Origin: Syntrophorhabdales bacterium
Lineage (GTDB): Bacteria; Desulfobacterota; Syntrophorhabdia; Syntrophorhabdales; WCHB1-27
Assembly (NCBI GenBank): GCA_050012495.1
Contig: JBEKHB010000001.1
Span: 11,304-75,303, forward strand
Length of the DNA stretch: 64,000 nucleotides
Reading direction: 5' to 3'
Below the pieces are notes generated by a model. The model searched no databases. It was not told the origin of the DNA and was given only the letters and a program-made list of their open reading frames with translations. The position numbers and the translations under genes were made by a program. This document shows, one piece after another, positions 10,293-36,234 of this stretch (position 1 is the stretch's first letter; the number at the start of each line of letters is the position of its first letter).

Positions 10293-10301
10293 GTGGTTAA
10301 A

Positions 10302-12325: not shown

Positions 12326-12395
12326 GGTTTGTTCGGTAAGTCAGCCTGCACGACAAAGCTCCAAGCAATACCCCCGCATTTCCTGCACCGGCAGC

Positions 12396-14609: not shown

Positions 14610-14871
14610 TCTCTTTCGGTTCTTCCGCTCGATGCGTACTTTTCGCTTGAAAAAGATGTGAACATACAACCCAATAAAGAGAAGCAGCCAGCGTCTCTTA
14701 TCAGAGGGGAAGTATATCCACAAGTCTGTTGTACCATGGATTCGGTCTCGGCTACACGCATGTAATGACAGCATATGAGGAGGGCAAGGCGATCTTTACC
14801 ATGAGGCATAACATTAAATGTCAGTGGACGGAATATTAGTCATGTAATCCGTCTAGTTGATCTATCAAAGC

Positions 14872-15657: not shown

Positions 15658-15685
15658 TTCTCCCCTCCTTCAAAAGCTATGAACA

Positions 15686-15785
15686 GTCTCATAATACTCC
15701 TGTCATGCCGGCCTTGATCCGGTACTAGGAAGGGCCCGGATTCTGGCAGCAGCCTGAATGACAACGCATCGAATAATTATGAGAC
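15686..15785. mobile_element. MITE/REP-like palindromic element
   Basis: Perfect 10-bp terminal IR GTCTCATAAT / ATTATGAGAC enclosing TGTCATGCCGG...GAATGACA, a REP/RPE-type palindrome. Intergenic. Confidence 0.6.
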
Positions 15786-15836
15786 GGCTAATAATTCCTC
15801 CAACTGAAAGATGATTTGTCCCGGTGCGGAAACAGA

Positions 15837-16655: not shown

Positions 16656-16678
16656 CAGTTCCCTTACATTAGATTACA

Positions 16679-17467
16679 TTACTTGGTCTTACTGAAGACA
16701 AACAAACCACAGCCACAATCACATCGGCGGGCAGTCTCAAACGAGGCATTCGCCACAATTCTCAATCCCTGATCCTCAATCAGGTGAAATTCCTTCAACT
16801 GAAGCGGGCGAATCGCTTCGACAATAGTTTGCGGATCAAACACCCGATGCGCGTCGAAACACAGATGTTCTCGCCCAACCGGCGTAGATAAGAGTAGAAT
16901 TCCACCGGGCGCCAACACGCGCGCTAATTCTTGCGCGGCCTGCAAGTAACCATTAGGATCAATCGGACCCCCATAACGACCAAGTCCAATATGCTCAATG
17001 ACATGCAGACAGCTCAAACTTATAACACTGTCGTCGTCAAACGGCAGATCGACAATTGACCCCTGTCGAAATTCAACATTCTTTACTTCTGAAGCTAAGG
17101 GCCGGAGGTCAACGTATACAACTCGACTAAAGACGAGCAAATGGGCAATAAAGCCATCCAGACGACTTCCGACATCGACATGCTCAATCACGGGTTGTTC
17201 GTAAAGATACTGGGCCGCCCAGAGGTCTTGAAAGAAGTAGTGTCCCTTTGCCGTTCCGGCACCAGCAAAACGATCCGCCGATGTATATAAGACATCGCCT
17301 ATCTTTATTCCGAACCGCCGATCCTGATTTCTCCTGCTATATTGAATCCAGTGGATTACATAGTATGGAACTGCTCGGCATCGGTTAATAAACGCCGCCG
17401 GATCAAATAAGAAGGAGCGGAAACAGTAATACAGCTGCTTTAGCGTAGGACTATCCGAGAATCTCAT
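16679..17467 (-). CDS. DUF268-like SAM-dependent methyltransferase-fold protein
   Basis: HYFFQDLWAA, HVDVGSRLDGF, SCLHVIEHIGLGRYG, FDAHR. Confidence 0.8.
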   Translation of the reverse strand: MRFSDSPTLKQLYYCFRSFLFDPAAFINRCRAVPYYVIHWIQYSRRNQDRRFGIKIGDVLYTSADRFAGAGTAKGHYFFQDLWAAQYLYEQPVIEHVDVGSRLDGFIAHLLVFSRVVYVDLRPLASEVKNVEFRQGSIVDLPFDDDSVISLSCLHVIEHIGLGRYGGPIDPNGYLQAAQELARVLAPGGILLLSTPVGREHLCFDAHRVFDPQTIVEAIRPLQLKEFHLIEDQGLRIVANASFETARRCDCGCGLFVFSKTK

Positions 17468-18299
17468 CTCTAAAGAACCAGCCGTAGTTGTCACAGAATG
17501 CCCTTCGTGCGTAGCTCTCAATTTGTGATCTTGAGACTGGCACCAAACCACTCTTTAAGCGGTAGGCCCTATAGCCGCATTTCCAGAACTCCTCAAAGGT
17601 CGCCACAAAATCCTGATTAATCTCCAACCTATTCTGCTGCAAGCAAATCTCGACGAACCACATGGGTTTAGGCGATTGCACCAACAGCTGCTGAGCCCCT
17701 TGTAATACGCCGAGTTCGGCCCCCTCCACATCAATCTTGATCAGCAATCGCTGCTCAAGAAATCTCTGGCCTACCGCGATATCCAACGAAGTTAATGGAA
17801 TAGTTGTTGCCTCGCCAGCAGAGGCTGAATGCCCGCCACCCCATTCATTTAGCAATGATGCTCCTGTCGCTTCACCATATATGGTGGTCAGGCGCGGTGA
17901 TCTTGCCAATCCCATTGGCCAAACCTCAACATCCTCAAAATGATTCGCCTTCAAGTTGTATAGCAACACCTTGAGATTCGCGGGAAGCGGCTCAAAAGCC
18001 ATAACATGTTTGCCATGCGAGCGAGCTAAGACCGTGTACATCCCTACGTTCGCCCCTACGTCAACAAACACATCGATTCTACTCAAGAGTGAGCTTATCC
18101 AATTGATCTCTAGCTCCTCATGGGCTCCCCAGTGACCTCCACCGGGCATTGCAAAGTAAAACCCAAGCGGCGTCACCTCCGGTCTCAGCTGTCTGTATTG
18201 CCACCATCTACGGATGCATCTAGCTGTACGCGTGACTACCGGCAATCGCGATCTTATCACTCCTCCTAACTGCAGCCTCAGAGACTGAGAACGCTTCAT
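17451..18299 (-). CDS. FkbM-family methyltransferase
   Basis: FVDVGANVGMY, AFEP, IKIDVEGAE. Confidence 0.9.
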   Translation of the reverse strand: MKRSQSLRLQLGGVIRSRLPVVTRTARCIRRWWQYRQLRPEVTPLGFYFAMPGGGHWGAHEELEINWISSLLSRIDVFVDVGANVGMYTVLARSHGKHVMAFEPLPANLKVLLYNLKANHFEDVEVWPMGLARSPRLTTIYGEATGASLLNEWGGGHSASAGEATTIPLTSLDIAVGQRFLEQRLLIKIDVEGAELGVLQGAQQLLVQSPKPMWFVEICLQQNRLEINQDFVATFEEFWKCGYRAYRLKSGLVPVSRSQIESYARRAFCDNYGWFFRDEILG

Positions 18300-19603
18300 G
18301 TTCGTTTCCTGCTCTTGACGATGAAGATCAGTACCAAATAGAACATGGCTCCAGCCACGTCGGCCCAAATTACGCCGCTTATCCCGGCTATATTTGCGCC
18401 AACCAGAACGGCCGAGGCGGTCACTATTGCTGTCGCACTCTTGGGTATAATAAGTGGATGGCTCTCAGTCCCTGTCAAAACGATGAAAGATGCAATCTGT
18501 CCGCACCCCGATAGTCCACCCGCTAAGATGGCAACAGGTAAGAGTGCTGAAACATCGCGAAAGTCTTCGGCAACAAAAATCGAGAAAATCTCCCGGTGAA
18601 ACAATCCGGCCCCAACTAAAATGAGCAACGTGACTATAAACATCGATAGCAACAACATCATGTTTAATCGGTCTGCCCGAGCTCGCCGAGAATGGTCACG
18701 TCCATCACCGGCGAGGCTATATAGCACGGGCACTCCCATTTGGGTTAAATAATTAGAGAAAATCGCCATACTGGCTAATCCAAGCTGCGCTAAAGCCGCA
18801 TACTGTCCGACCGCTGCTGTATTGCGAATGATTCCCAACCCCCACCGCTCAGACGAAGATTGCAGCCATGCAAAAATGCCAAATACCGAAAAAGGCCAGG
18901 AATAGCCTTTCACTCTGCGCACCCAATCGGTTATCCGATCTGGATGGTCAGCTGCCTGTGTCAGTAGTGTATGATGGCGATAACGCTGATATTGCCAATA
19001 CTGCGAGCTAAATACGGTAATGGAAGCTACGGCGTACGCCCACATCGCAACTGTCGCGGATGCCCCCAACACTACAAAAAGCACAACGGCAAACAATAGA
19101 CGTAGCCACTGACTCAGGCCTGCATGCCACGCGACTATGGCGCGCTGTCTTACTGCATTTTGCATTCCGTCCAGAATTGTCGACAAACCGGTGAATCCAC
19201 CATATACCAAGGCGCCAGATGACAACCTCCACCATTGACTCTGACCGGTTATCCACATGAGGATGGCGATGCAAACTGCGAGTCCGATTAAGATAATCGT
19301 TCGTTGCCACATCGTCTTCCAAGCCGCCTGCATAAGTTCGCACGCCTGCTTGGCCTCAAGCGAAGCACTGAAGAAACGCATGACAGCTTGGCCAGGACCA
19401 GCGAAAAAACAGTTTCCCAGCAGGAGCGGTGCGGTAAGGGCTAATGTTAGCACACCAAACTCAGACGCGCCTAGCATCTTGGTGAGTACCTTTAACGCAA
19501 CCAGACTTCCAACGACCGAAGCTGCTTGGCCGATACCAACCCATACAAATTCACGGCCAATTTTTAGGTAACGCGTCGAAAGTACTTCCTGTAGAACAGT
19601 CAT
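18296..19603 (-). CDS. wzx: Polysaccharide flippase (MOP/PST family)
   Basis: About 12 TMs, LTKMLGASEFGVL N-terminal PST motif, AVGQYAA. Confidence 0.85.
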   Translation of the reverse strand: MTVLQEVLSTRYLKIGREFVWVGIGQAASVVGSLVALKVLTKMLGASEFGVLTLALTAPLLLGNCFFAGPGQAVMRFFSASLEAKQACELMQAAWKTMWQRTIILIGLAVCIAILMWITGQSQWWRLSSGALVYGGFTGLSTILDGMQNAVRQRAIVAWHAGLSQWLRLLFAVVLFVVLGASATVAMWAYAVASITVFSSQYWQYQRYRHHTLLTQAADHPDRITDWVRRVKGYSWPFSVFGIFAWLQSSSERWGLGIIRNTAAVGQYAALAQLGLASMAIFSNYLTQMGVPVLYSLAGDGRDHSRRARADRLNMMLLLSMFIVTLLILVGAGLFHREIFSIFVAEDFRDVSALLPVAILAGGLSGCGQIASFIVLTGTESHPLIIPKSATAIVTASAVLVGANIAGISGVIWADVAGAMFYLVLIFIVKSRKRT

Positions 19604-19625
19604 ATATCAAATTCTGTAGGCAGGC

Positions 19626-19650
19626 ATGGGGTCAAATCTTTCCTTGACAA
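19626..19650. repeat. Short palindromic GGGGTCAAATCT..TTGAC element
   Basis: GTCAA (19631-35) / TTGAC (19644-48) inverted repeat just upstream of wzx. Resembles small REP-like ends. Confidence 0.3.
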
Positions 19651-19890
19651 GGAGAAACAGATTGGGATGCTGGTTGTGTTTTGGCTGTCTGATTTACGCT
19701 TTAATAACTTCAAAGCTCAAAGGAACTGCGTTCAGGCGTGAATGGGTGAATGCGTTAAAGCGCAGATGCGGCCGTCGTTCGAAACGATTCAGAAGTTTCT
19801 TGAGCTTTCCTCCATTTTCCACGGTCAGGAGATTTTGGAAGGAAAATATTCCAACAAGAGCATGGCTAAATCGTGTCGCCGTAATTTCTC

Positions 19891-21331
19891 TCAGTAAGGC
19901 ACATAATGGGCTTCCTGGTTAGGTGATTCAAGGTTTGTGAGGTTTTTATTACCATCGTACAACCCACTCATCAAATTCACGAATTTATTGCTGCCCACAT
20001 ACAGATGTTCTATCTTCGTAGTGGGTAGGTTTCGGAAGACTGCCCTATATTGCGGTCCGTTTTCCTTTGTATTGCCTATAGAATTATCGGTAATCCTTAT
20101 ATTGTTCGCATAATAGCTTTGGGGTGGTAGAGTTGAATATCCGTCGTGGGCAAAGAAAATGCCCGTGCTATATTCCCGACTTTGGACGCCTTCTCCGCAA
20201 TCGAATATAGTGTTTTTTGTGATATCTACATTAATGCTTCCCCAGGGGGAGCCGATAAATGTTATTCCGCCTCCTGTCACCCCACTATTCTGTTTTGGGT
20301 AATTTCCGTATCGTGCACCGAGTGAATGACCATGCCAACACCGCGATATTTATCATTGCGCCGTAAATTACTCGCAATATCATTGTTGGTAATTTTTAGG
20401 CCTATTATAGGTCCTGCATTGGCATAAGCGCTACAAAACGTACGCTGTGCACCATTTGCAATCTGAATGCCGACACATTCGCCGGCCGACATTCTTAGAG
20501 TTGACCGGTTCAAAAGTATTGCATTGGAACTGATAACGACGTTTTTAAGGGGTGTCGCTGTCAAAAAGAAAGAAACACCCCGAGCACAATTATGCATGCT
20601 ATTTTCCTGATCGATACATCGGATAGATTGTTGCCTCCCATCATGTGAGCGGTGCTTTCATTATCGTTTTGATTATCTAGCATGCGATTCGCAAGTTTGA
20701 GTATCGATTGCTCGCCTCTTCCAGCTATAGATAAATTTGAATGCAAGGTTAGAATGCGATTTTCGAGATAATTTCCTTGAGTGGTTATTTTTCGCAATAT
20801 GTAAACGCCTTCTGGTAGATGAATGTTCGCGGCAGCATCTATGGCTTTTTGAGTTGCATAGGTATCATCAGTATACCCGTCACCTTTTGCCCCCCACCAT
20901 TGAGGATAAACGTTCTGACTGGCAGTTTTGAAGGCAATGGCTCCATCACCAACAAAAATACGTGCAATGGGCGCTAAAAACTTGCCATTGATGGTTAATC
21001 TATGCGGTGCCGGGATGGTAAGGCAGGCGCCCTCTTCCAATTTAAGCGTAATGTACTCCGGAACTTCAAGATCTGTCGTAATTGTCCAGTTGCGGGAAGA
21101 TAACACTAACGTCTGGCGATCACGACTTGCTTTACTGCTAACACTTTGTAAATCATTCGGTTTGCTCCCTTGCAGGGGCTCGCTTGTTGCTGAAAGTGAG
21201 AAAATCAAAACACTAAAGAAACCAAGAATAAGCACGGCAATTTTAATCAAAAGAATTCCTCGGACCTTCCGGGATAAAGGCGTGAATAAAAACTGTTCTC
21301 TCCCGAAGGCTAGACCTTTATCTCTTGCCAT
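19891..21331 (-). pseudogene. Right-handed beta-helix glycanase/lyase (Pectate_lyase_3/GH55-like), split by two single-base deletions
   Basis: WWGAKGDGYTDDT.A.QKAIDAA motif plus parallel beta-helix repeats across three overlapping ORFs (20561-21331, 20277-20597, 19891-20280). One extra base in an A4 run and one in a G4 run fuse them. Confidence 0.75.
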
Positions 21332-21694
21332 AATAGGGGATTACCTCTTTTTTTGCTCCCTTGTTGGCGGGCGATAGTTCCAGCGTTTTCTCGTAGCAAA
21401 GCCCAGCTTCCTGGCGACGACCCAGCATCTCAAGGATATCCGTGAGGGCGATCCTGTACTTCGCCACAGTACTGGTTTGACTCGAGTAGTCTTGTGTTTG
21501 TTTTCACTGCTGAGAACAACAGAACGTTGGAGTCAATGGAAGTAAAAACACGATTTGAGTTGTAGGGTGTTGAGACCGGACGTATTTTAGTCTTCCGCTT
21601 GCTTGTTCGACTGGCCGGCATCCGCGTCAAACCCTATTCCACCGAGGGAAGGAGGCTGATACTGAAATCCTAAACCCCGGGCATCGGGAAGCAG

Positions 21695-22729
21695 TCAACG
21701 CCACGTGCTATAATACTCCAACACCTTCTTCTTTGCCTCCTGGTTTGCGGGGGATAATTCCAAGGCCTTTTCATAGCAGAGCCTCGCTTCCCGGCGCAGG
21801 CCTTGCTTTTCATACACCTCGCCGAGGGCCAACCTGTAATCGGCAACGCGGGGTCTGGCGACGACCAAGGACGACAGTTCCTCCCGCGCCAGATCGAGCC
21901 GGCCTTGACGAACATGGAGATCGGCAAGGAGGTAGTTGAAATCCTGGAGGACGCTTTTCTTTGCTTCCACCTCGATCACCCCCATTTCAGGGGGAGAAAG
22001 GCTTTCATCGGCGAGTATCTTCTTCCATGTGGAGATTGCCTCGACCCTCTCGCCCAGCGCGAAGCAGAGCGCAAGCTTTTTGATGGCAAAGGGCCAATCG
22101 ACAGGGGGCTGTATAACAGTTCGTTTCAACCAGAAGACGGCTCGATTTGTGTCACCTTTCTCGGCGGAGATTGAACCGAGGGCGAGACACAGATGCGGGT
22201 CGGACACAAGCGCGTGGTCAAGGGCAAGGCTGAGGTTCAGATTCAACTCCGCCAGATTCCTGTAAAGGAACCTTTTTTCTTCCGGGATCTCAGGAAGGGC
22301 ATCGGACAGGTAAAGACCTGTTCGAAGGTACGTTTCAGGCCGGCTGGGGTTCAAAGACAGGGCCTTTTCGCACCGCGCAAGACCTTCATCGATCCGGCCA
22401 TGTTTCCCTTCAACCTCGCCCCGCAGCACCCAGGCTTCGGGGTTAATTGCATCGACGCATACGGCCCCGCGCACCGATCTATCGGCATTCGGATCATTGA
22501 TCGCCATCAGTGACCGGGCGAGAAAGGTCTTGTAAGCGGAGGAGAGAGGGTCGAGCATCGATAACCGTTGCAGGATCAAAAGCAGAGTCTCAGGTGTGTA
22601 ATGGGCGGCGGGAGACGGGCAAGTCCAGAGAGAACTCGAATCAATGGCAATGACCAGCTCGCTGAAGCATCTCACGCCGGATAGGTAGACCAGGATGGAC
22701 AAAAGGAAGGTGAGGAGAATCCTGGCCAC
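21695..22729 (-). CDS. TPR-repeat protein with N-terminal membrane anchor
   Basis: TPR patterns (AWVLRGEV...ALSLNP; LALGEVYEKQG...YEKALELSP). Confidence 0.8.
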   Translation of the reverse strand: MARILLTFLLSILVYLSGVRCFSELVIAIDSSSLWTCPSPAAHYTPETLLLILQRLSMLDPLSSAYKTFLARSLMAINDPNADRSVRGAVCVDAINPEAWVLRGEVEGKHGRIDEGLARCEKALSLNPSRPETYLRTGLYLSDALPEIPEEKRFLYRNLAELNLNLSLALDHALVSDPHLCLALGSISAEKGDTNRAVFWLKRTVIQPPVDWPFAIKKLALCFALGERVEAISTWKKILADESLSPPEMGVIEVEAKKSVLQDFNYLLADLHVRQGRLDLAREELSSLVVARPRVADYRLALGEVYEKQGLRREARLCYEKALELSPANQEAKKKVLEYYSTWR

Positions 22730-25632: not shown

Positions 25633-27888
25633 CTATGCCTGCTGGTCGGGCTGTTTGCTCCCCTTGTTTCCGGAGGGGGATTTCCTGGAAAAAAAACCTT
25701 TTTTGGGCTGGTCCCACTCGTGACGCTTGCGCGTTTTCTTGCCCTCGCCGTCGTGGCCGTAGTAATCATAGTAATGGTAGTAGTAGTGGGAGTAGTGGGA
25801 GTAGTAATAGCTTTCCCGGCCGATATCTATGTTGTTCAGGACAGCGCCTATCACCTTCGCGCCGCTATCTCTCATGACCCTGGACCCGTGTTGGGCCGTT
25901 TCCCTTGTGGTAGCGCCTCCATGGACCACATAGACCACACCGTCCATAAGCTTGCTCAACACCACCGCGTCCGTGACCGAGCTTATCGGGGGGGAATCGA
26001 GGATGATCTTGTCGTAGGCGCCCTTCATCTGATCGATAAATTCCGCCATCTTCTTCGAGCCGAGGAGCTCCGCCGGGTTGGGAGGCACGGGGCCGCAGGT
26101 CATGACATCGAGCTTTTCGTGCAGGACCGATCGATAAATGTCCGGCTCCTCACCTACAATGACGTTGCTCAACCCTCGACGGTTCTCCAGGCCGAAGACC
26201 TTGTGGATCTGAGGCTTCCTCATGTCTGCGTCGACGAGGAGGACGGATTCCCCGGAATAGGCGATCACGAGGGCGAGGTTGGCAGTGATGAACGTTTTGC
26301 CCTCCTTCGGGATAAAACTCCCGATCAGGATCGTTTTGAGGGGGGCGTCGGGTGACGAAAAGAGCACGGCCGTGCGCAGGCTGCGAAACCCTTCCGCGAC
26401 CGTGGACTTTGGCTTATGGTGCACGATGATCTCCGGGCTCGACACTTTTTGCCCTATCTCTTCCATAAAGTTTATCCTGGGGATGAGGGCCAGGCACGGG
26501 GTCTCCAGATACTTCTCGATGTCATCGGGGGTCTTGAGGGTGTTGTCGAGGTACTCGAAGAAAAAGGCCATGCCGCAGCCCATGAAAAGACCGACTACAA
26601 CCGAGAGTAGTATATACTGCAGGGGCTTGGGCCGGGCGGGCAATATCGGCACTTCGGCCCTGTCCACGATCCTTACGTTGGTAGTCCCCAGCTCGCCCGC
26701 CACGCTCGTCTCTTTCAGCCTCTTCAGGAGGTTCTCGTAAAGCTCCCTATTCTTATCCGCCTCCCTGGCGAGCACGCTGTACTCTATCGATCTTTCACTC
26801 AGCTTCTGGGTCTCCGCCTTTTGGCCTTCCACGGCGATGCGCGCATTGGCTTCCCTCGCCCTCGCGATAGCCAGCTCGTTCTTGATGGAGGCCAGCACGT
26901 TCTGTGATTCCGACTTGATCTTCTGCCGGTTGGCCTCGATCTCCGATTTGAGCTGGGTCATTTTCGGGTGCTTTTTACCATACTTCTGGGATAGCTCCGA
27001 CATCTGTGTGACGAGCCTCGCCTCGTTCTCTTTGAGCCTCTGGATCAGGTAATTGTCCATCACCTGGGGCATGGACTCGATGGGTACCCCTTTTGAGAGA
27101 AGGTCCTGCACCTCCTTGTAGCGCGCTTCGACCTCAACCCTCCTCGTCTGTTCGTCGACGAGCCTGCCGGTCAGGCCGCCCAGCTTCTGCATGGCAATGT
27201 TTTCTTTCTCCTTGTCCCCCTGAAAGGGAGTGATCTGCACGATGCCGTACCGTTCTTTATATGCTTGCAGCGCCTGTTCCGATTCCTCGAGGGTCTTCTT
27301 CTGCTCCTCTATCTGCTTCGTGAGGAAGTCCTTGGCCTCACCGGACGTTTCACTCGCCCATGCAATGTTTTGCTCGATGAACCCCTTTGCCGTCATATTG
27401 ACGATGTCTGAGGCGAGGTGCCTGTCCGTGCTTTCGTAACTGATATCGACAAGGCGGCTGTTCCTGATCGGGTCAATTTTCAGGCGCTTTGATAACTTAT
27501 CTGCGAGTAAGGTTTCTTTGGCCTTTTTGTCCAACGTCGAGCCGTGCTGCGATTTCGGTGGATTGAACACGGGGTTCTCTGACAAGTTGAGCGCCTGGAT
27601 CACGCGCAGGGCCAAAGAGCGGCTCTGGAGGACCTTGTACTGGGTCTGGTAGAACTCCGTGCTGTTCACATCAACCGGCAGAAGATCCTGCATGTTGAGT
27701 ACTTTTGGCGCTTCCCTTTCAATCAGTATCCTTGTCGTTGCCTTGTATACGGGCGTCATGACAAAGGAAGCGATGGCAACCGTACCGACAATGATTGCAA
27801 AACAGACCAGGGCAGGGCGACGCCACTTGTAGAGGGTGCGGAGATAGTCATAGATGTGTGTTTCGTTGGTTTGGCCGGGAATGTTCAT
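25633..27888 (-). CDS. wzc: Polysaccharide co-polymerase / BY-kinase (Wzc/GumC)
   Basis: Two TMs with a coiled-coil periplasmic region, EGFRSLRT, PKEGKT Walker A, VDADMRKP, ILDSPP, C-terminal Tyr cluster. Confidence 0.95.
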   Translation of the reverse strand: MNIPGQTNETHIYDYLRTLYKWRRPALVCFAIIVGTVAIASFVMTPVYKATTRILIEREAPKVLNMQDLLPVDVNSTEFYQTQYKVLQSRSLALRVIQALNLSENPVFNPPKSQHGSTLDKKAKETLLADKLSKRLKIDPIRNSRLVDISYESTDRHLASDIVNMTAKGFIEQNIAWASETSGEAKDFLTKQIEEQKKTLEESEQALQAYKERYGIVQITPFQGDKEKENIAMQKLGGLTGRLVDEQTRRVEVEARYKEVQDLLSKGVPIESMPQVMDNYLIQRLKENEARLVTQMSELSQKYGKKHPKMTQLKSEIEANRQKIKSESQNVLASIKNELAIARAREANARIAVEGQKAETQKLSERSIEYSVLAREADKNRELYENLLKRLKETSVAGELGTTNVRIVDRAEVPILPARPKPLQYILLSVVVGLFMGCGMAFFFEYLDNTLKTPDDIEKYLETPCLALIPRINFMEEIGQKVSSPEIIVHHKPKSTVAEGFRSLRTAVLFSSPDAPLKTILIGSFIPKEGKTFITANLALVIAYSGESVLLVDADMRKPQIHKVFGLENRRGLSNVIVGEEPDIYRSVLHEKLDVMTCGPVPPNPAELLGSKKMAEFIDQMKGAYDKIILDSPPISSVTDAVVLSKLMDGVVYVVHGGATTRETAQHGSRVMRDSGAKVIGAVLNNIDIGRESYYYSHYSHYYYHYYDYYGHDGEGKKTRKRHEWDQPKKGFFSRKSPSGNKGSKQPDQQA

Positions 27889-27950
27889 TTAAATAATCCC
27901 TCCGGGTGCGCGTTCACTGCTCAAGGCTCAGGGTCACATGGAGCCGTCTG

Positions 27951-28841
27951 TCACCAGAAGCTTTCGGGTACGACGATCGTGTCGCCCGGTTCGATGAGGT
28001 TTTCCATAGTGAGGTAGAGGTCCACCTTCTTACCGTCCTTCTCCCTTACCGTCTTTGCCTTTCTTTTGGCAGCCTTTTCTGTAAAACCACCCGCCGTGCT
28101 GATGGCGTGCAGGACGGTCATCCCCTTCATGAAGGTGTACTGGCCCGGCCGCTTCACTTCTCCCGTCACGTAGAATACCTTGATCTTCGGTACAAAAATG
28201 GTATCGAGGTTAAGCACCTGGATGTTCTGGCTCCTCTCACCTTCGAGGACGTCCCTGAGCCTGACTTTGATAAGCTCGGAGGGATCGGCCTGATCAGGCA
28301 GAAGCGGGGTTTGCACTCCGACTTTTTCCTTGGGCCTGACGATCATGATCTCCTGGTCCGCTTCCGGCTTTACCCCACCCGCCATGGCTATGGCCTCCAC
28401 AAGGAGGGTCTTTCTTGTCAAAGGATATGCCCCGGGGGAGTTAACCTCTCCTATGACAAAGATCTTCTGGCTCCTGTACTCGGTCACTTGCACGCTTACC
28501 TGGGGGTCCACGATGTACCCGTCCGCGAGCATCTCCCTCAGCTTCTTTTCTACCTGAAGCTGACTGAGGCCCGTGACCCGAAGCTCTCCGATAAGGGGAA
28601 AACTTATTTTTCCCTCTATGTTGATCCGCGCTTTCCTTGTCAGATCGGGATGATCCCAGACCGTGATCGAAATCTCGTCTTCGGGGCCTAGCACATAATC
28701 GGCATCGGCGAACACGGCGGAGGGGAGGAGAGAACAGAGAAGGAGAGCCGCGAGGGCGACGCAGGAGGCGCGAAGCACGAAGACAGATAACGAATGACGA
28801 ACGACGCATAACGGGTTCTTGCTATTCATGCACTTATTCAC
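27951..28841 (-). CDS. wza: Polysaccharide export protein (Poly_export + SLBB)
   Basis: DYVLGPEDEISITVW, GKISFPLIG, VIGEV..PG, two SLBB repeats, ends VPESFW. Confidence 0.92.
   Translation of the reverse strand: MNKCMNSKNPLCVVRHSLSVFVLRASCVALAALLLCSLLPSAVFADADYVLGPEDEISITVWDHPDLTRKARINIEGKISFPLIGELRVTGLSQLQVEKKLREMLADGYIVDPQVSVQVTEYRSQKIFVIGEVNSPGAYPLTRKTLLVEAIAMAGGVKPEADQEIMIVRPKEKVGVQTPLLPDQADPSELIKVRLRDVLEGERSQNIQVLNLDTIFVPKIKVFYVTGEVKRPGQYTFMKGMTVLHAISTAGGFTEKAAKRKAKTVREKDGKKVDLYLTMENLIEPGDTIVVPESFW
28761..28814. repeat. Degenerate heptamer array in the Wza N-terminal region
   Basis: ataacga atgacga acgacgc ataacgg (28787-28814), preceded by gcgcgaa gcacgaa. Confidence 0.5.
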
Positions 28842-28892
28842 CTGTTGTGGTATGTGAGCCAGGGCCCGAAAGGCCGGGTGCCGGTCTTTGCC

Positions 28893-30080
28893 TTAGGGAG
28901 TAAGGATAATCTTGAACATTATGCGGTGGTCGGTATAGGAGTACTGATCAAAGGTGGAATGTGCATCCCTGTACTGGTATTCGAGCCTGGCCTGAAGCCA
29001 TTTTTGTATGTTGTAAAAGGCTGCGGCTCCGCCGCTCCATATCTCGTCGCTGCGCTTTTTCAGCGCACCTGTGACAGGCTCTGTCAGGTTGTCGATATAG
29101 GCGCGTTCCTGATAGGAGATTGCTGCCGTGGCGCCTATCTTGCCCGTGAAGAAATGCTGAAGGGTAAGGGTCATCAACGTGTTGACATAGGAAGCGTTGA
29201 GCAGCATGGTATCATCCGCAAGGGCGCGAAGGGCGTCAAGGGTCAGGCTTGTCCTCGCGTCAAGGTCGTCAACGAGCTGGCCGGCCATGATCCAGTTGCG
29301 GGGACTGTTATCCCTGCCCGCCACGGTCGTGTCAAACTCCTTCCAGCCGTAGCCTACCTTGAAATTCCCCTTCAGCTTTCCCGCAGGGTCAAAGGCAACA
29401 CCCAGATAGGCCAACCGGTCCTTGTGATCTGCAAGACGGTCGGAGACGAAGTCCTTGGCGGCGTAGTCGTACTCGACCAATCCCGACATGCGTGGGAGGA
29501 AACGATAATAGAGGCTTGCACCGACGAGATTATTCGTATATTCCGCGTACCGGTCGCGATACTCGTCGAAGGCCAGATCCTCGCGGTTATACTTCGCCTC
29601 GATCTTCCACCTGTCCGCAAAGCTGTAAGCGGCAGCGGCGTTAAGGAAATTATCATGGAAAGGCATCTGGTGCGTCATTAGCTGGATACGTTCGATGGTG
29701 CTTTTTGTAAAGTTGTCTCCCAGGGTAAACTCCAGGCCGCCCGGCGCAACGAGATGGAGAAGCCCGTTGGCCCGGTGATCCTGGTAATTGTTCGCCGAGT
29801 ACTTGGCGAAGTCGACGAACCCCACCTTGTAGCCGAGGTCGAACGAGCTCTGCCCGAAGAGGTACTTGAGGCCCATACCGGGGGTGACCGTGGTGACGTA
29901 GTCCGACTTCTTGTCCGATTGCGTCAGAAAGAGATTGCTCCTGAACATTTCCTGGAGGTCAAGCTCGGGCAGAAGGGTAAAGTGTCCGTATTCTATTGCG
30001 GCGCCGGCCGGCCTCAGGAGCGAAATCGATAACGCGCAGATGAGCAGCCCCAAAGCAAGGATTCTTTTCAGCCGGCCCAT
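28893..30080 (-). CDS. Outer-membrane beta-barrel for EPS export (BBP2-like)
   Basis: Signal peptide, alternating amphipathic strands, N-terminal SN.F...KKSDYVTTVTPG. Adjacent to wza. AAGGAG RBS. Confidence 0.8.
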   Translation of the reverse strand: MGRLKRILALGLLICALSISLLRPAGAAIEYGHFTLLPELDLQEMFRSNLFLTQSDKKSDYVTTVTPGMGLKYLFGQSSFDLGYKVGFVDFAKYSANNYQDHRANGLLHLVAPGGLEFTLGDNFTKSTIERIQLMTHQMPFHDNFLNAAAAYSFADRWKIEAKYNREDLAFDEYRDRYAEYTNNLVGASLYYRFLPRMSGLVEYDYAAKDFVSDRLADHKDRLAYLGVAFDPAGKLKGNFKVGYGWKEFDTTVAGRDNSPRNWIMAGQLVDDLDARTSLTLDALRALADDTMLLNASYVNTLMTLTLQHFFTGKIGATAAISYQERAYIDNLTEPVTGALKKRSDEIWSGGAAAFYNIQKWLQARLEYQYRDAHSTFDQYSYTDHRIMFKIILTP

Positions 30081-30110
30081 GTTATGCTCCTTTATAAAAC
30101 TCACTGAACT

Positions 30111-30674
30111 TTACCTGGAGGGACTTGCCACGCCACCGCCGCCGGTTGCTCCGATGCCTGCGGTGCCGAACGTTGTTCCACCCGGACCCACTCCGCCGGG
30201 GGCCGGTCCTGCCGGAGCCGTAGTGGCGACCAGAATTGCCATATCCACGGTAGACCGGGAGATGCCATCATTCAGGGCAGCTGTTCGCAGATTATTGAGG
30301 AGACCCACATTACCGCTGACCGCAGTCGCGGCACCGGTGATTACGGAACCGGGGTTGACCCCCGGAATGCCCAGGGCGGCTTTGAGGACGTCGATCGCCC
30401 GGTCCGGCTTTGCCTTCACGGCCGCATGGACGATGCTGTACGCCGACGTTGCTTTCACGGCTATCGCTTCACGGATTACCGGGATACAATCAGCGCCGGC
30501 GGCTATGCATTGGGTAACGATATCCTCTATGGTCACGTTGGCCGTCAGGGCGTTACGTATTACCTGGGACAGGGGCATGCCCGTCGCCATATCGCTTCTG
30601 ACATCAGCTCTCGCGTGTGCATGGATCGAGACAAGGAAGATAAGAAAAAAAAGTGCGAATGATAGTTTTTTCAC
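30111..30674 (-). CDS. Secreted helical protein with Gly/Thr/Pro tail ending GGGGVASPSR
   Basis: AGGAGG RBS plus GTG start, signal peptide VKKLSFALFFLIFLVSIHAHARA, Ala-rich helical repeats, low-complexity tail. Confidence 0.75.
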   Translation of the reverse strand: MKKLSFALFFLIFLVSIHAHARADVRSDMATGMPLSQVIRNALTANVTIEDIVTQCIAAGADCIPVIREAIAVKATSAYSIVHAAVKAKPDRAIDVLKAALGIPGVNPGSVITGAATAVSGNVGLLNNLRTAALNDGISRSTVDMAILVATTAPAGPAPGGVGPGGTTFGTAGIGATGGGGVASPSR

Positions 30675-30861
30675 GGTACCTACCCTCCTCGTAGGGAATA
30701 TCGCGCCAAAAAACACCATCCGGGAATGAAGCCGGCCATGCTGACCGGTCAAACCGGAACTTCCCTCACAGCCTGAGGCGACATGCCCGCCCTTGCCAAC
30801 AGGTAATGGCTCCCGATTGTCCTGGATAGCGGGCTCCACACGTTTATCGGCCGGAAAGAGC

Positions 30862-31053
30862 CTAGTTCCCGTAGACCAGTTTCACGATCGAATCCCGGTA
30901 TATCCGCAAAGACCCCTTGACCTTGATGCCTTTAATTGTCCCCAGCCGATGCCAACGATATACTGTCTTGAGAGAAACGCTGAGGAATGAGGCAACGTCA
31001 TTTGGTCTCAAAAGAGTTTTATCGGGTAGATCCCGATACTTCACGTTATCCAC
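30862..31053 (-). CDS. Excisionase/BldC-like HTH_17 DNA-binding protein (paralog 1)
   Basis: LLRPNDVASFLSVSLKTVYRW...GSLRI. GGAGG RBS. Confidence 0.85.
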   Translation of the reverse strand: MDNVKYRDLPDKTLLRPNDVASFLSVSLKTVYRWHRLGTIKGIKVKGSLRIYRDSIVKLVYGN

Positions 31054-31087
31054 GACACCTCCGAAGCCATTGTGTTAAACTCGTCAG

Positions 31088-31519
31088 TCATCGCTCGTCA
31101 CTTCCTGCGGCGGCAAGTGGGCTCGCTTGTTCCGCGACCTTCGCTCCACATGTCGAGGCGGCAATGAGATGCAGCAGACTTTCGGGATCAAAAGGCTTGA
31201 AAAGGAAGGCGCAAGCGCCCCTCTGAATCGCATCCTCTCTCACATGAACGTTTGCTGTACCACTCATCATGATTACAGGGATATCCAGGTTCTCTCTCCT
31301 GATGTCTTCGAGTACTCCAAACCCGTCAGGAGCCACGCCCAAGTCCACATCCAACACCACCGCACTGAACGCCATCAGCCGGAATTTGTCGATCGCTTCC
31401 CGGCCGTTCGATGCCACTACTGATTTGAGGCCGGCGGCTGTCAGCCAGGAAGAAAGCAGGTCAGCAACCAGATTGTCGTCGTCTACCAGCAATATTAGTG
31501 ACTCGTTGTTCTCCCCCAC
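31088..31519 (-). CDS. Stand-alone response regulator receiver (CheY-like)
   Basis: ILLVDDD, VVLDVDL (phospho-Asp), IPVIMMSG, FLFKPF. GGGGAG RBS before GTG 31519. Confidence 0.88.
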   Translation of the reverse strand: MGENNESLILLVDDDNLVADLLSSWLTAAGLKSVVASNGREAIDKFRLMAFSAVVLDVDLGVAPDGFGVLEDIRRENLDIPVIMMSGTANVHVREDAIQRGACAFLFKPFDPESLLHLIAASTCGAKVAEQASPLAAAGSDER

Positions 31520-31727
31520 AATATCTCCCCAGGATGCCGTCTTGAACGGCGTATTTTCCACCCATCGCAAATCGAGGCCACTCTCTTCTTCGATGAAGTC
31601 CCGGAAACGGGACGCTGTTGCCACTGGTTCGGAAGTGCCGCGGATACCATAGCCATGCAAGGCACATCGGCCAACCGGCTTTTAGACAGGTGATACCGGA
31701 GGCAATGACATGAGTCCGGATGGTGGG

Positions 31728-31739
31728 CAAACTACCGCC
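31728..31739 (-). promoter_or_regulatory. ops-like pause element GGCGGTAGTTTG
   Basis: Exact match to the GGCGGTAGnnTG consensus. Intergenic and oriented toward the left EPS cluster. Confidence 0.7.
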
Positions 31740-31786
31740 TGGGATAGCTTATCAACGGTCCATAAACGCCAGGGCTGCCACAGTTG

Positions 31787-32020
31787 CTATCTTTCGGCAC
31801 CGGACCTTTGCAATAGAGTCAGGATCGAGCCACGGGTTATTCGAAGGGACTTGTTGATCCTGACCCCCTCGATCAAACCAAGCTCAAACCAACGGTAAAC
31901 AGTCCTCTCGGAGACACGCAAAAACGACGCCACTTCGCTGGGCCTTAACATGGTTCTCGGCGGCAATTCTGCTTTCACGTTCAGCTCTTTCACGCTGTCT
32001 TTTTCCTCTGAACCGAGCAT
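31787..32020 (-). CDS. Excisionase/BldC-like HTH_17 protein (paralog 2)
   Basis: MLRPSEVASFLRVSERTVYRW...KSLRI. Confidence 0.85.
   Translation of the reverse strand: MLGSEEKDSVKELNVKAELPPRTMLRPSEVASFLRVSERTVYRWFELGLIEGVRINKSLRITRGSILTLLQRSGAER
31917..31932 (-). promoter_or_regulatory. Possible sigma-54 -24/-12 element (inside HTH paralog 2)
   Basis: TGGCGTCGTTTTTGCG = GG-N10-GC. Lies between the box at 32096-32112 and the ops site at 31739, but is within coding sequence. Confidence 0.35.
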
Positions 32021-32095
32021 ATTATTCACCGATATAGGGAATGATACCATCCGGCGAAAAACCGTGTCTAAGACGCATGGCGGCAATGTCGCTAC

Positions 32096-32112
32096 TGTCT
32101 GAAAAGTTTACA
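32096..32112 (-). promoter_or_regulatory. YGTAAA-N7-GACR box (putative enhancer)
   Basis: Minus strand TGTAAACTTTTCAGACA. Intergenic. Confidence 0.55.
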
Positions 32113-32366
32113 AAAATCCGCGATGGGTACGAGACAGCCTATAAAGAGATTCTATGCGCAGTAGTCATCACCCCGGTCACAATAGAGCAATTGCGAAAGG
32201 CTCACCCGGCGCGAAAAACCGATGAGGGACGATCCAGGCATCCCCACATCACTTCGTTTTCGTTGATTTCTCGCAGGGGAAACTTCGAGTGTCTGCCTCT
32301 TCTTTAGATGGCTACAGCACGGAGATGCATGATTAAAGAAGCCACGGACCGACCCGCCGCCTTCTC

Positions 32367-32588
32367 TTATCCGAGTCCCACGTTCTTTCCACAAGACAAA
32401 AAGTCGACGACGGAGGTGCGCAACACCCTGACGGACCTGTTTAACTTGACGCTTTCCATCAGTCCCATGTCACACCAACGATAGACAGTCTTGGCTGACA
32501 CGCCTAGATAGGCGGCCACCTCCGCAGCCTTCAACAATCTTTTCCTTGGCATATCATCCAGCATAATTTCGTTATTCTCGTTTGCCAT
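32367..32588 (-). CDS. Excisionase/BldC-like HTH_17 protein (paralog 3)
   Basis: LLKAAEVAAYLGVSAKTVYRW...RSVRV. GGGGGAGG RBS with TTG start. Confidence 0.85.
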   Translation of the reverse strand: MANENNEIMLDDMPRKRLLKAAEVAAYLGVSAKTVYRWCDMGLMESVKLNRSVRVLRTSVVDFLSCGKNVGLG

Positions 32589-32974
32589 TGCCTCCCCCCT
32601 ATGGTCACTCTAAGACTGATTTCCAGCCGCATCGTGTGTCTTTCAACATTCCCAGGGTCTTTGCAAACAGGCATCAGGCTGATAGCCTTTCAACAACGCT
32701 ATCACAATTCGGACATCTAGTGAAGGGCTTTTACGACGTCCTCCTTGTGTCCCTCCAACCCCCTTCTGACCTCCCGCACTTTGTCCCGGCCGAACAAGAT
32801 TTTGCCTCCCTTTCATATAGACTCCCCGGCGCACGGAATTCTTCCCTTAATTTCGCTCCATCTTCTGAAAATCGACAAGCCGATGCCATATCCTTCGCTG
32901 CCACCCACGCCCAACGGGTGCGGGGCCCGACCCGCAAGCGTGTACCCCGAAAATTCAACGTTGTCTTTATGCCG

Positions 32975-32991
32975 CGTCAACATGTTTTACA
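32975..32991 (-). promoter_or_regulatory. YGTAAA-N7-GACR box
   Basis: Minus strand TGTAAAACATGTTGACG. Confidence 0.5.
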
Positions 32992-33112
32992 GAGTCAACG
33001 ATGCCGCCAGGAACTGTGGCGGCCTGGAATTTCTTCCATGAAATCGTTGAGGTAGTAATCACGGAAACCCCCGGTATTGCGTTCAGGCTATCACACCCGC
33101 TCCCGCTGTAAG

Positions 33113-33129
33113 TGTAAACTGCGTCGACA
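33113..33129 (+). promoter_or_regulatory. YGTAAA-N7-GACR box
   Basis: TGTAAACTGCGTCGACA (TGT-N11-ACA). Confidence 0.55.
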
Positions 33130-33240
33130 TGTCTATCACTATCCTGCGCTCCCATCATAAAAGAACTGCTGTCCGGCCCCCTTGCTCGGACTCACCTTGA
33201 GTGGAGTAGCGCGGCCCGCCTCATTTCAGAGGGTGATGTA

Positions 33241-33257
33241 TGTAAAGGACCGGGACA
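33241..33257 (+). promoter_or_regulatory. YGTAAA-N7-GACR box (enhancer of promoter 1)
   Basis: TGTAAAGGACCGGGACA, 134 bp upstream of the sigma-54 element. Confidence 0.65.
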
Positions 33258-33374
33258 CTGCGCACGAAGTTGCCGGGCCTTTTCCGGAACCTGTTTCCCG
33301 CACCGGGCCGCCGCTCTCCGTGATTTCAACCACTTGGACGAGTGGGCACCTCATGTGTGCGAGAACCTGCCATG

Positions 33375-33390
33375 TGGCATGCTTATTGTA
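33375..33390 (+). promoter_or_regulatory. Sigma-54 -24/-12 promoter 1
   Basis: TGGCATGCTTATTGTA. Near-consensus, with GT instead of GC at -12. Near-identical copy at 36219. Confidence 0.7.
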
Positions 33391-33598
33391 AACATCGGAT
33401 TCGAGCGCAAAGGCAGTCTGTCAAGGTCATTCATCGTGCTCCCTCTTTTTAGGTCCTGTAAGCGAAGGCAGTTGAGGCGCGGTAACTGGCGCCAATGAAG
33501 ACATCCGCGGAGGAAGTCAGTGCTTCAGCGGGAGGACCGGGGCATGCAGATGACATATCTGAAACGCGTGAACCACGCACCACGGGCATTCATCCGAT

Positions 33599-33610
33599 GG
33601 CGGTAGCCTA
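33599..33610 (+). promoter_or_regulatory. ops-like element GGCGGTAGCCTA
   Basis: One mismatch to GGCGGTAGnnTG. Ends ~35 nt before the first gene of the right cluster. Confidence 0.65.
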
Positions 33611-33644
33611 TCCGTAGTACGTCGTCTCCTTAAGGACTTAGCAT

Positions 33645-35078
33645 ATGGAGCCTACTATGCAGGCGGAATCTTCAAGTTTGGCGGTAAATCAGGGGAACCG
33701 CAGCGAGAACGAACTCGCACTGCAGGGTTTTCCCAGGCAGAAGTTGTTTCTTCTCGCGGGTGATATGGGCTCGATCCTGGCGGCAGGCCTCGTGACGTCC
33801 CTGAGCGCCGCGGGGTCCGTGCCGGCCATATCGTCGCTGCTGACAATTCTGGTGGTCTCGGTCATCTGTTATCCGGCTGCCCTCTATGTCTTTGACATGT
33901 ATAACGCGGAACGTTCTTTCCACCGCGGAGACATGGTAAAGCGATGCCTCTGCGCGATACTCCTGGGCGGCGCCGTTTCAGTCCTCTTTAGCGCGGTGGT
34001 CGGAGAACACGCCATCGCCAGGGGCCAGCCTCTCCATATGGCCATGTTGTTGGCCCTCTTCGCCGGTTGCCGCTACGCCTACTCAACGCTTTCGCAAACC
34101 ACCCTCGTAAAAAAACCTGTGCTGATCGTAGGCGCGGGCGATACCGGCCTGGCCATCTATAATATCCTCCGCTCCCCGGCCTCGCCTTATACCGTGAAAG
34201 GGTTCGTGGATGACGACGGAGCGTCAGCAGCCTGGGCCTACCCCAAAATAGTAGGCACCACCGACCGTGTGACAGAGCTTGCCGGCAACGTCGGGGCCGC
34301 TTCCGTGATACTTGCCATTCCCGGAGACCGCTCAGCCCGGCTCACCCGGCGCATCCTTCAGGCACGGCTGCAGGGGACAGTAATTGAAGAGATGGCAGAC
34401 GTGTATGAGCGACTTACCGGCAGGGTCCCCGTGGAGCACATCCAGGACGAGTGGCTCATGTCCGCTGAAGGGTTCGACATCCTCCATAAAGCCTGCCTCC
34501 GTCATGTCAAGCGTTTTTTGGACCTGGTGATATCGGGCTTCCTGCTTCTCCTTACCTTCCCGGTGATCCTGGTTGCCGGCCTCCTGGTCCATGTAGATTC
34601 GACGGGTCCCGTCTTTTATACCCAGGAGCGTGTGGGAAAAAACGGAAAGGTATTTAAGGTTTTCAAGTTTCGCTCCATGAGAGTGGACGCCGAGAGCCAG
34701 GGCGCCCAATGGGCCGCCGGTGACGATCCCAGGGTCACCCGCGTAGGGAAATGGCTGCGCCTCTACCGCATAGACGAGCTGCCGCAGTTGTGGAACGTGG
34801 TCAGGGGCGACATGAGCGTGGTAGGCCCTAGGCCGGAACGACCTGAGTTCGTGCACTTCCTGGAGCAGAGGATCCCCTACTATAGCCTTCGGCATTATGT
34901 CACACCGGGGATCACGGGTTGGGCGCAAGTGAGCTTCAGATACGCATCATCGGTAGAGGACGCGCTGAACAAGCTTGAGGCGGACGTCTACTACATAAAG
35001 AACATGTCACTTCTCCTCGACCTCAAGATCCTGCTAAAAACTATAGGGGTGGTCTTCCTTGCACAAGGGTCACGTTAA
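33645..35078 (+). CDS. Initiating polyprenyl-phosphate sugar transferase (WcaJ/PEP-CTERM-system type)
   Basis: N-terminal TMs, YERLTGRVP, FKFRSM, RIDELPQL, GPRPERP, PGITGWAQV. Confidence 0.93.
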   Translation: MEPTMQAESSSLAVNQGNRSENELALQGFPRQKLFLLAGDMGSILAAGLVTSLSAAGSVPAISSLLTILVVSVICYPAALYVFDMYNAERSFHRGDMVKRCLCAILLGGAVSVLFSAVVGEHAIARGQPLHMAMLLALFAGCRYAYSTLSQTTLVKKPVLIVGAGDTGLAIYNILRSPASPYTVKGFVDDDGASAAWAYPKIVGTTDRVTELAGNVGAASVILAIPGDRSARLTRRILQARLQGTVIEEMADVYERLTGRVPVEHIQDEWLMSAEGFDILHKACLRHVKRFLDLVISGFLLLLTFPVILVAGLLVHVDSTGPVFYTQERVGKNGKVFKVFKFRSMRVDAESQGAQWAAGDDPRVTRVGKWLRLYRIDELPQLWNVVRGDMSVVGPRPERPEFVHFLEQRIPYYSLRHYVTPGITGWAQVSFRYASSVEDALNKLEADVYYIKNMSLLLDLKILLKTIGVVFLAQGSR

Positions 35079-35097
35079 GCCGGAAAGTGTAGTGCCC

Positions 35098-35985
35098 ATG
35101 TCGGAGCATGAAAGCCCCGTGGTTCGCCTCGTGAAAAACACTACAAGCCCCATCGTGATGACCGTCGACCTTGAGGACTGGTTCCAGGTCGAAAACGCGA
35201 GGTCCGCTTATCCGGTCGCCACATGGGACTCTTGTGACCTCCGTGTAAATCTTTATACAAAAATCCTCCTCGATATCTTTGACTATTACAATATCCACTG
35301 CACCTTTTTTGTCCTTGGCTGGCTGGCCGAAAGATGCAAGGGCGTCGTCCTGGATATCCAGGCCAGGGGCCATGAGCTGGCATCCCATGGATATGGTCAC
35401 CAGCTTACGTATGAGCTGTCGAGGGAAAAACTCCGGGAAGACCTCTATAGAAGCAAGAGTCTCCTCGAAGACATCACGGGCATGCGCGTTCTTGGCTACC
35501 GCGCCCCCAGCTTCTCGATCACCGACAGGGTCCTTGAAGTCCTGAGAGAACTCGACTACGTCTACGACTCCAGCTACAACAATGCGGCCGTCAACAAACG
35601 CTACGGGAAAATCGAGGGGCAATGGCACGCATCGTCGACAGGCCACCTGATGGCGCGGAACGGAATTTTAGAGCTGCCCGTCAGCAACCTGAATATCGAC
35701 AGGCTTGCCTTGCCCTGGGGCGGCGGGGGTTACTTCAGGTTCTGGCCTTTCCCCCTTTTTAAGTGGGGGGTCAAGCGTATCCTGAGCACCCAGGGCAGTT
35801 ACCTCTTTTACTTTCACCCCTGGGAGCTCGACTCTGTTCAGCCAAAGATCAAAAATATCGGCATCACAAAAAGGTTTCGCCACCGCGTAAATCTTGTCAA
35901 CACATTTCATCGCATCAATCTGTTTTTCTCTGCGTTCAAACATTGCCGGTTCATTTCATGTACCTCCTTCATTGAAAATGGATAG
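35098..35985 (+). CDS. Polysaccharide deacetylase, DUF3473 / PEP-CTERM-locus type
   Basis: MTVDLEDWFQV, TFFVLGW, GHELASHGYGH, GYRAPSFSI, GGGGYFR, FYFHPWELD. Confidence 0.92.
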   Translation: MSEHESPVVRLVKNTTSPIVMTVDLEDWFQVENARSAYPVATWDSCDLRVNLYTKILLDIFDYYNIHCTFFVLGWLAERCKGVVLDIQARGHELASHGYGHQLTYELSREKLREDLYRSKSLLEDITGMRVLGYRAPSFSITDRVLEVLRELDYVYDSSYNNAAVNKRYGKIEGQWHASSTGHLMARNGILELPVSNLNIDRLALPWGGGGYFRFWPFPLFKWGVKRILSTQGSYLFYFHPWELDSVQPKIKNIGITKRFRHRVNLVNTFHRINLFFSAFKHCRFISCTSFIENG

Positions 35986-36218: not shown

Positions 36219-36234
36219 TGGCACATTTATTGTA
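36219..36234 (+). promoter_or_regulatory. Sigma-54 -24/-12 promoter 2
   Basis: TGGCACATTTATTGTA. Confidence 0.72.

Follow-up and report, generated by a model that had tools for sequence, protein, structure and literature searches.

Small BldC-like proteins are widespread and, to our knowledge, have been studied almost only in Streptomyces. In Myxococcus, the single-domain response regulator EpsW controls exopolysaccharide (EPS), and in Bacteroides the capsule loci are headed by the locus-specific regulator pairs UpxY/UpxZ, which are NusG-like antiterminators. BldC of Streptomyces, one of the small MerR-like regulators, has a large regulon and a DNA repeat of the form AATTXXXX(C), as given in the consulted part of PMC5859096. 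Here we analyse a 64,000-nucleotide stretch (the window) of contig JBEKHB010000001.1 from a Syntrophorhabdales bacterium, in which three minus-strand open reading frames (ORFs) for small helix-turn-helix (HTH) proteins, the paralogs P1, P2, and P3, lie between two divergent polysaccharide clusters, with a gene for a stand-alone receiver (REC) between P1 and P2. With moderate confidence, we read the HTH proteins as lineage-specific BldC-like regulators, P2-REC-P1 as a phosphorylation-linked cassette, and the EPS genes at this locus as probably being among the targets. What results is an annotation with good support and a hypothesis that can be tested; no mechanism is demonstrated.

As with EpsW, a receiver without an output domain is found at a polysaccharide locus, but REC is bracketed by two genes for small putative DNA-binding proteins and stays with them also at loci that lack EPS genes. 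As with UpxY/UpxZ, paralogous small regulator genes stand at the 5' end of several polysaccharide loci per genome, but the families are unrelated (NusG-like antiterminators there, winged HTHs here). The proteins of the trio resemble BldC in being stand-alone chains of ~65-75 residues that consist of a winged HTH only, in being chromosomally encoded with no integrase nearby, in having the recognition-helix motif TV(Y/T)RW in common with it, and in having direct repeats in a conserved promoter. The locus differs from that of BldC in the presence of several paralogs per genome and in the bracketing of a receiver gene by two of them, which the consulted part of PMC5859096 does not describe for BldC.

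A record-level literature search for an HTH-REC-HTH cassette, for excisionase-family or HTH_17 regulators of EPS, for EPS of Syntrophorhabdus, and for BldC-like proteins with response regulators returns no precedent. At this locus and its relatives, conserved gene order links an entire paralog family to two-component signalling and, in repeated instances, to loci for polysaccharide export; the hosts are abundant uncultured syntroph-related bacteria of peat. If the receiver controls both flanking HTH proteins, P2-REC-P1 would be a response regulator built from separate parts, for which no printed precedent was found, and the locus would offer a way to study the control of matrix production by these organisms in peat.

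The receiver gene, overlooked in the initial annotation of the locus, is the most telling neighbour of the HTH genes. For comparison we use tblastn maps of 40 loci, a tree of 61 subfamily members, and 22 genomes of the family, including this one (G000). P2, REC, and P1 stand together on one strand at 11 loci in three genera (7/7 genomes of this genus, 3/4 of genus g5, and the sole genome of genus g6). REC orthologues (E <= 1e-30) are present in 11 of the 22 family genomes, exactly one in each; all 11 are flanked by P2 and P1, and an orthologue of P1 follows REC in 11/11 cassettes. The constant partner of the HTH genes is the stand-alone receiver, not the EPS genes, and other clades of the subfamily serve other contexts.

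In the tree, P1, P2, and P3 form three separate orthologous clades, indicating that the paralogs are old clades and not recent tandem duplicates. The initial annotation had called them three tandem paralogs; three paralogs are present, but a receiver gene splits P1 from P2, and the copies are ancient by the tree. P3 adjoins the cassette in five of the seven genus genomes (G000, G001, G002, G004, and G006), and its orthologues lie away from the cassette in G003, g5, and g6. The functional unit would be the old three-gene P2-REC-P1 cassette, with P3 as a separate old paralog that probably moved beside it in this genus. Where the synonymous rate (dS) is computable, the ratio of non-synonymous to synonymous rates (dN/dS) is 0.05-0.46 across all four genes (0.05-0.46 for P1 and 0.05-0.12 for P2 against their orthologues), and dS exceeds 1 between genera. 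These values point to purifying selection on P1, P2, P3, and REC.

A profile of the three paralogs (E <= 1e-6) matches in 16 of the 21 other family genomes and, weakly, in 2 of 19 genomes from the order's other families. Among 300 further genomes sampled from the phylum, one has a match at E <= 1e-12, also weak. A word-indexed search of 5.8 billion proteins returns only 33 relatives of P1 of near-equal length, all with HTH_17, and the nearest records come from metagenome-assembled genomes (MAGs) labelled uncultured delta proteobacterium, Syntrophaceae, or Syntrophorhabdales. The subfamily therefore looks confined to one family of Syntrophorhabdales-like MAGs. At 58 loci with HTH_17 homologues from outside the family (L123-L180), there is no REC or EPS neighbourhood, only scattered weak matches. 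Therefore, the linkage is not generalisable to HTH_17.

The three ORFs of 63-77 aa do align end to end, as first noted, with 18 invariant columns and pairwise identities of 55% (P1-P2) and 38% (P1-P3). All three exceed the gathering cutoff of Pfam HTH_17 (PF12728, 27 bits), with scores of 36.1 (P1), 40.9 (P2), and 44.1 bits (P3). The excisionase-family domain TIGR01764 (cutoff 28.8 bits) is passed by P3 only (32.9 bits; P1 24.6, P2 24.2). An AlphaFold2 (AF2) model of P3, built from 50 subfamily sequences, has a predicted local distance difference test (pLDDT) score of 83.8 and the layout b1-a1-a2-b2-b3-a3, with nothing more. Taken with the ORF lengths, the model indicates that P1, P2, and P3 are winged HTHs only, with neither a coiled coil for dimerisation nor an effector domain. 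The top Foldseek match of the model is Pukovnik Xis (4j2n; TM-score by target length 0.83, root-mean-square deviation 1.0, 37% identity over 49 residues), and BldC on DNA (6ama/6amk) gives a TM-score by target length of 0.72-0.84. With so tiny a domain, the Foldseek E-values are weak. The E-value of the subfamily profile is 2.4e-8 for BldC and 8e-8 for Pukovnik Xis, in agreement with the model and with the Xis/BldC-like fold proposed in the initial annotation. Classical MerR regulators were considered as well and are ruled out: the Pfam MerR score is 19 bits, under the cutoff of 28.2, and the chains end ~10-15 residues past the wing.

REC matches Response_reg (PF00072) with 80.2 bits. The acidic pair D13 and D14, the phospho-acceptor D57, S86, and K108 are invariant in the 11 orthologues. 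Pfam and NCBIfam scans of REC return the receiver domain only and no output domain. The ORF is open over 31088-31660 (190 aa), and the start is set at the likely GTG 31519, which gives 143 aa, because the ATG or GTG starts of relatives fall ~8-25 codons ahead of the DDD motif. The first 47 residues of the open frame show no conservation outside the genus and are rejected as coding.

Translation starts of the HTH genes are preceded by candidate ribosome-binding sites: GGAGG lies 4 nt 5' of the GTG of P1, GGTGA lies 6 nt 5' of the ATG of P2, and the G-rich purine run GGGGGGAGG lies directly 5' of the ATG of P3. The sites reported earlier for P1 and P3 are thus borne out. The ATG of P2 at 32020, which yields 77 aa, is kept in five of six genus genomes.

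The predicted promoter of P2 consists of a -35 element TAGACA, an 18-bp spacer, and an extended -10 element TGgTATCAT (32049-32041). Direct repeats of GACA start at 32099, 32090, and 32068, and the third forms part of the -35 element, within the near-palindrome GTCTTAGAC. The blocks TTYAGACA, GCGACATT, GTCTTAGACA, and TGnTATCAT, the first two of which lie upstream of the -35/-10 elements, are kept across genera; the flanking DNA no longer aligns. The motif GTCTTAGA is found upstream of 12 of 13 P2-type genes and in 3 of 5 P3 loci of the genus. Its two matches in the window are both on the minus strand, in the P2 promoter and in front of P3. The conserved block farther upstream of P3 occurs once, exactly, in the window and is kept even in G002, whose upstream neighbour differs; a further conserved block lies between P2 and REC.

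In the mechanism that we propose, an unlinked histidine kinase would phosphorylate REC, and the state of REC would modulate the action of P1 and/or P2 on DNA. The HTH proteins would bind direct repeats head to tail, like BldC. One target would be the P2 promoter, where GACA repeats overlap the -35 element, so that the cassette could be autoregulated or cross-regulated by the paralogs. In this genus, EPS export and synthesis genes are probably among the targets as well, because the cassette heads an operon of u242 (the gene directly 3' of P1), EpsL, Wza, and Wzc and lies opposite the operon of the priming transferase. DNA binding, coupling between REC and the HTH proteins, and control of EPS are steps that we infer only.

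The flanks of the trio are as follows. The left flank, on the minus strand, encodes an EpsL-like barrel, Wza, Wzc, a PHP phosphatase, Wzy, and Wzx, and the trio is co-oriented with it, in line with the earlier description. The right flank, on the plus strand and divergent from the trio, starts with a TIGR03013 priming transferase at 33645, followed by a DUF3473 deacetylase, sugar-modifying enzymes, a Wzt ABC ATPase, and glycosyltransferases. An independent contig (peat run X18) covers 27500-35500 and confirms the layout; therefore, the arrangement is no assembly artefact. The stretch is present in peat and wetland metagenomes, in 24 DNA sequencing runs.

The tie of the subfamily to polysaccharide loci recurs but is not constant. 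Across the 22 family genomes, 14/68 subfamily genes (at 9/68 Wza loci) lie within 10 kb of a Poly_export (Wza) match, against ~1.5% expected. Single "leader" genes that directly precede a second Wza-Wzc-transferase locus (in G000:C45, G006, G011, and G013) make up a clade sister to P1. In G003, a single copy nested in the P1 clade is divergent from a Wza gene, and the genes downstream of the cassette are a u242-like gene, DegT, a Bac_transf-like gene, and Polysacc_synt_2. In G006, the orthologue of the EpsL-Wza-Wzc cluster of the window lies elsewhere, with two subfamily HTH genes in front. Of the 11 cassettes, only 5, all in this genus (5/7 genomes), have the priming transferase in divergent orientation, and only 2 have Wza downstream within 6.5 kb. 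The wza/wzc linkage that the initial annotation proposed to look for is therefore recurrent but partial, and in this genome the homologues are not adjacent to integrases. Its view of the proteins as regulators of EPS synthesis agrees with the proximity to Wza, but not with cassettes that have no EPS genes, with the other settings of P3 and of its sister clade P3b, or with the lack of a common promoter motif.

Several observations weigh against our reading of the locus. The family genomes are kin, so that 14/68 shrinks to perhaps 2-4 independent associations. The fetched flanks of four of the 11 cassettes (G002, G014, G017, and G019) lack any polysaccharide gene; the annotated genes there are of the housekeeping kind, with a P-type ATPase, MetK, an HD protein, adenine deaminase, a radical SAM enzyme, an ADP-forming acyl-CoA synthetase, PBP1, RACo, DUF763, and a GHMP kinase. 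The distance from the cassette to the Wza cluster is ~40 kb in G005 and G006. The GACA and GTCTTAGA motifs were chosen post hoc, and motif searches with GGAAGAATTCC, TTAGACA, AGACA-N5-7-GACA, and GACA/GTCTTAGA find no recurrence at EPS promoters. The candidate repeats are of the GACA type, 9 and 22 bp apart, and differ from the AATTXXXX(C) given for BldC in the consulted part of PMC5859096. The architecture is BldC-like by the P3 model, yet the proteins fall outside the curated NCBIfam BldC subfamily: against HTH_BldC (NF033787) P1 scores 30.4, P2 25.5, and P3 27.5 bits, far under the cutoff of 77. Scores against the NCBIfam MADS1 antiphage HTH (NF047737) are 26.6-32.9 bits, also far under the cutoff of 80. 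A weak search for longer proteins with P1 gave seven candidates, and none of them is a fused REC-HTH_17 protein at E <= 0.001. Among the sequencing-run matches (24 DNA runs), no RNA run carries the stretch.

A bolder form of the proposal describes P2-REC-P1 as a split response regulator, in which the phosphorylated free receiver would govern head-to-tail assembly of two BldC-like proteins on phased GACA repeats. The wider paralogs, namely the Wza-Wzc leaders and the copies in operons with a histidine kinase (HK) and a NarL-type regulator, would then form a family-specific network with its own BldC-type switch for each polysaccharide locus. We offer this form as speculation with a low chance of being right.

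Among the alternatives, we first weigh dedicated control of EPS, which is possible but on balance unlikely. The trio would control both flanking clusters, either as a cascade or by bending DNA for a sigma-54 promoter of the priming-transferase operon. Its position at the hinge of two EPS clusters, the divergent priming transferase in 5/7 genus genomes, the enrichment of the subfamily near Wza loci, and the leader copies at the head of other Wza-Wzc loci are all consistent with such a role, but 4/11 cassettes have no polysaccharide neighbours. Moreover, P3 orthologues occupy other positions: in genus g5 they are directly upstream of genes for LemA and a TPM-domain protein on the same strand in 3/3 genomes (L089, L091, and L093), and in G003 the orthologue is beside a phosphomannomutase and a transposase. 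In the sister clade P3b, the order PAS-HK, NarL regulator, HTH is found at five of nine loci.

The sigma-54 part of this alternative rests on a -24/-12-like element upstream of the priming transferase. The element (TGGCAY-N5-TTGTA) is kept in 5/5 genus genomes that have the priming transferase, and a twin element at 36219-36234 (+), before an epimerase gene, is kept in four genus genomes. Both have T in place of the usual C at -12. A search of the window with TGGCAC-N5-TTGCW, allowing two mismatches, gives 21 matches versus 28.7 expected, indicating no overall enrichment; only the two conserved TGGCAY-N5-TTGTA sites stand out. The genome encodes rpoN and 26 enhancer-binding protein genes, none of which is on this contig. 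The right-hand cluster may be sigma-54 dependent. However, HTH and EPS promoters have no motif in common, and nothing links the HTH proteins to the sigma-54-like promoter. The sigma-54 promoter suggested in the initial annotation thus has a conserved candidate, but the proposed link to the HTH proteins is not supported.

It is also conceivable, but improbable, that the proteins are pleiotropic BldC-like or nucleoid-associated proteins with many targets, and that their adjacency to EPS genes in this genus stems from reshuffled gene order at a variable locus and not from a regulatory connection. Both the fold and the small size match those of BldC, a protein with a large regulon according to the consulted part of PMC5859096. 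Family genomes carry ~4-9 paralogs in varied contexts, and the flanks of the cassette vary even inside the genus. However, proximity to Wza recurs in several clades and genera, and the strict co-inheritance with a single REC gene suggests that the signalling input is specific.

The fold is the same as that of excisionases and recombination directionality factors (RDFs; Pukovnik Xis 4j2n, RdfS 8dgl), and P3 passes TIGR01764, but P1 and P2 are under its cutoff. A PF00589 integrase scan of the 64-kb window is empty, as the initial annotation had it; serine recombinases and att repeats were not searched, and the window was not scanned against PHROGs. On the same contig, PF00589 matches are found at C1:91244-93125 and C1:117994, ~16 kb or more past the end of the window, the nearest being ~47 kb from the trio. 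The genome as a whole has 17 HTH_17 matches, 19 integrase matches, and seven copies of the subfamily. None of the seven copies has an integrase within ~47 kb on the same contig. Four other HTH_17 genes (on contigs C32, C41, C53, and C75), none of them in the subfamily, lie within 1.5 kb of a tyrosine integrase. An excisionase role is strongly disfavoured because there is no nearby integrase and synteny is stable across genera. The evidence supports the view, already implied by the term "domesticated" in the initial annotation, that P1-P3 are chromosomal regulators and not RDFs. The original observation is confirmed and its interpretation is partly right: the proteins are domesticated regulators of the Xis/BldC fold that recur at polysaccharide loci. 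That they are relics of mobile elements (excisionase or RDF genes minus the integrase) or defence parts (MADS-type HTH) is very improbable: close homologues are named "excisionase family DNA binding protein" or "predicted site-specific integrase-resolvase", the top structural match is a phage Xis, and there are weak MADS1 matches, but synteny and purifying selection are kept across genera with dS above 1, the integrase-linked HTH_17 genes of the same genome lie outside the subfamily, the MADS1 scores (27-33 bits) are far below the cutoff, and the neighbours are REC and EPS genes with no methyltransferase adjacent.

The four integrase-linked HTH_17 genes themselves probably encode true excisionases that belong to integrated elements. 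Two in-frame TGA codons are present in the integrase on C75.

Table 1. Coordinates of the HTH genes, the receiver gene, and candidate regulatory DNA in the window.
Feature	Coordinates	Strand	Description
P1	30862..31053	-	63 aa, GTG start; stand-alone winged HTH (HTH_17); last in the P2-REC-P1 cassette
REC	31088..31519	-	~143 aa; stand-alone receiver without output domain
P2	31787..32020	-	77-aa HTH_17 protein; first gene of the cassette; longest ORF 31787-32086 (99 aa)
Predicted P2 promoter with candidate operator	32041..32100	-	scan 10/12; conserved across genera
P3	32367..32588	-	73-aa HTH_17 protein; separate old clade by the tree; adjoins the cassette in this genus only
Second GTCTTAGA	32609..32616	-	21 nt before the P3 start
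Conserved block GGAA-GAA-TTCC ... GTCTATATGA	32805..32850	-	~230 bp upstream of P3
Sigma-54-like -24/-12 element TGGCATGCTTATTGTA	33375..33390	+	255 bp upstream of the priming glycosyltransferase

Apart from the elements in Table 1, inverted repeats of the form GATAGC ... GCTATC are found twice on the minus strand, at ~32690-32720 upstream of P3 (11-bp spacer) and at 31740-31790 directly past the P2 stop (~43-bp spacer). Their conservation does not extend beyond the genus, and they could be hairpins or operators. An Rfam scan of 30000-34000 at E <= 1 returns no match, and a generic promoter and terminator scan predicts sites no more numerous than in shuffled sequence.

The gene u242 (30111-30839, minus strand) has no Pfam or NCBIfam match. 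An internal start gives a signal-peptide-like N-terminus, and the tail is rich in Gly, Ala, and Pro. G004, G003, and G002 have homologues with 42-50% identity, located either after P1 or before EpsL. In the closest relative (G004, locus L081, 11547-13523, plus strand), an insertion of two extra ORFs of 282 and 361 aa separates P1 from the u242-EpsL-Wza genes; a Pfam scan of the 282-aa ORF gives no match.

Two further loci of this genome carry subfamily genes. At L099 (G000:C33, 8454-12965, minus strand), a P3-like paralog with 77% identity is third in a row of PAS-histidine kinase, NarL-type regulator, HTH, and PAS-protein. L100 (G000:C45, 132-10096, minus strand) is a second polysaccharide locus (Wza, Wzc, Bac_transf, DegT, and FemAB-like) with its own HTH gene at the 5' end; contig C45 ends 31 bp past this gene. 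Within the window, the region 10000-22000, which spans the distal left cluster (the flippase and its neighbours), has a GC content of 0.45-0.50 versus 0.55-0.60 elsewhere, consistent with a variable portion of the locus that is exchanged horizontally.

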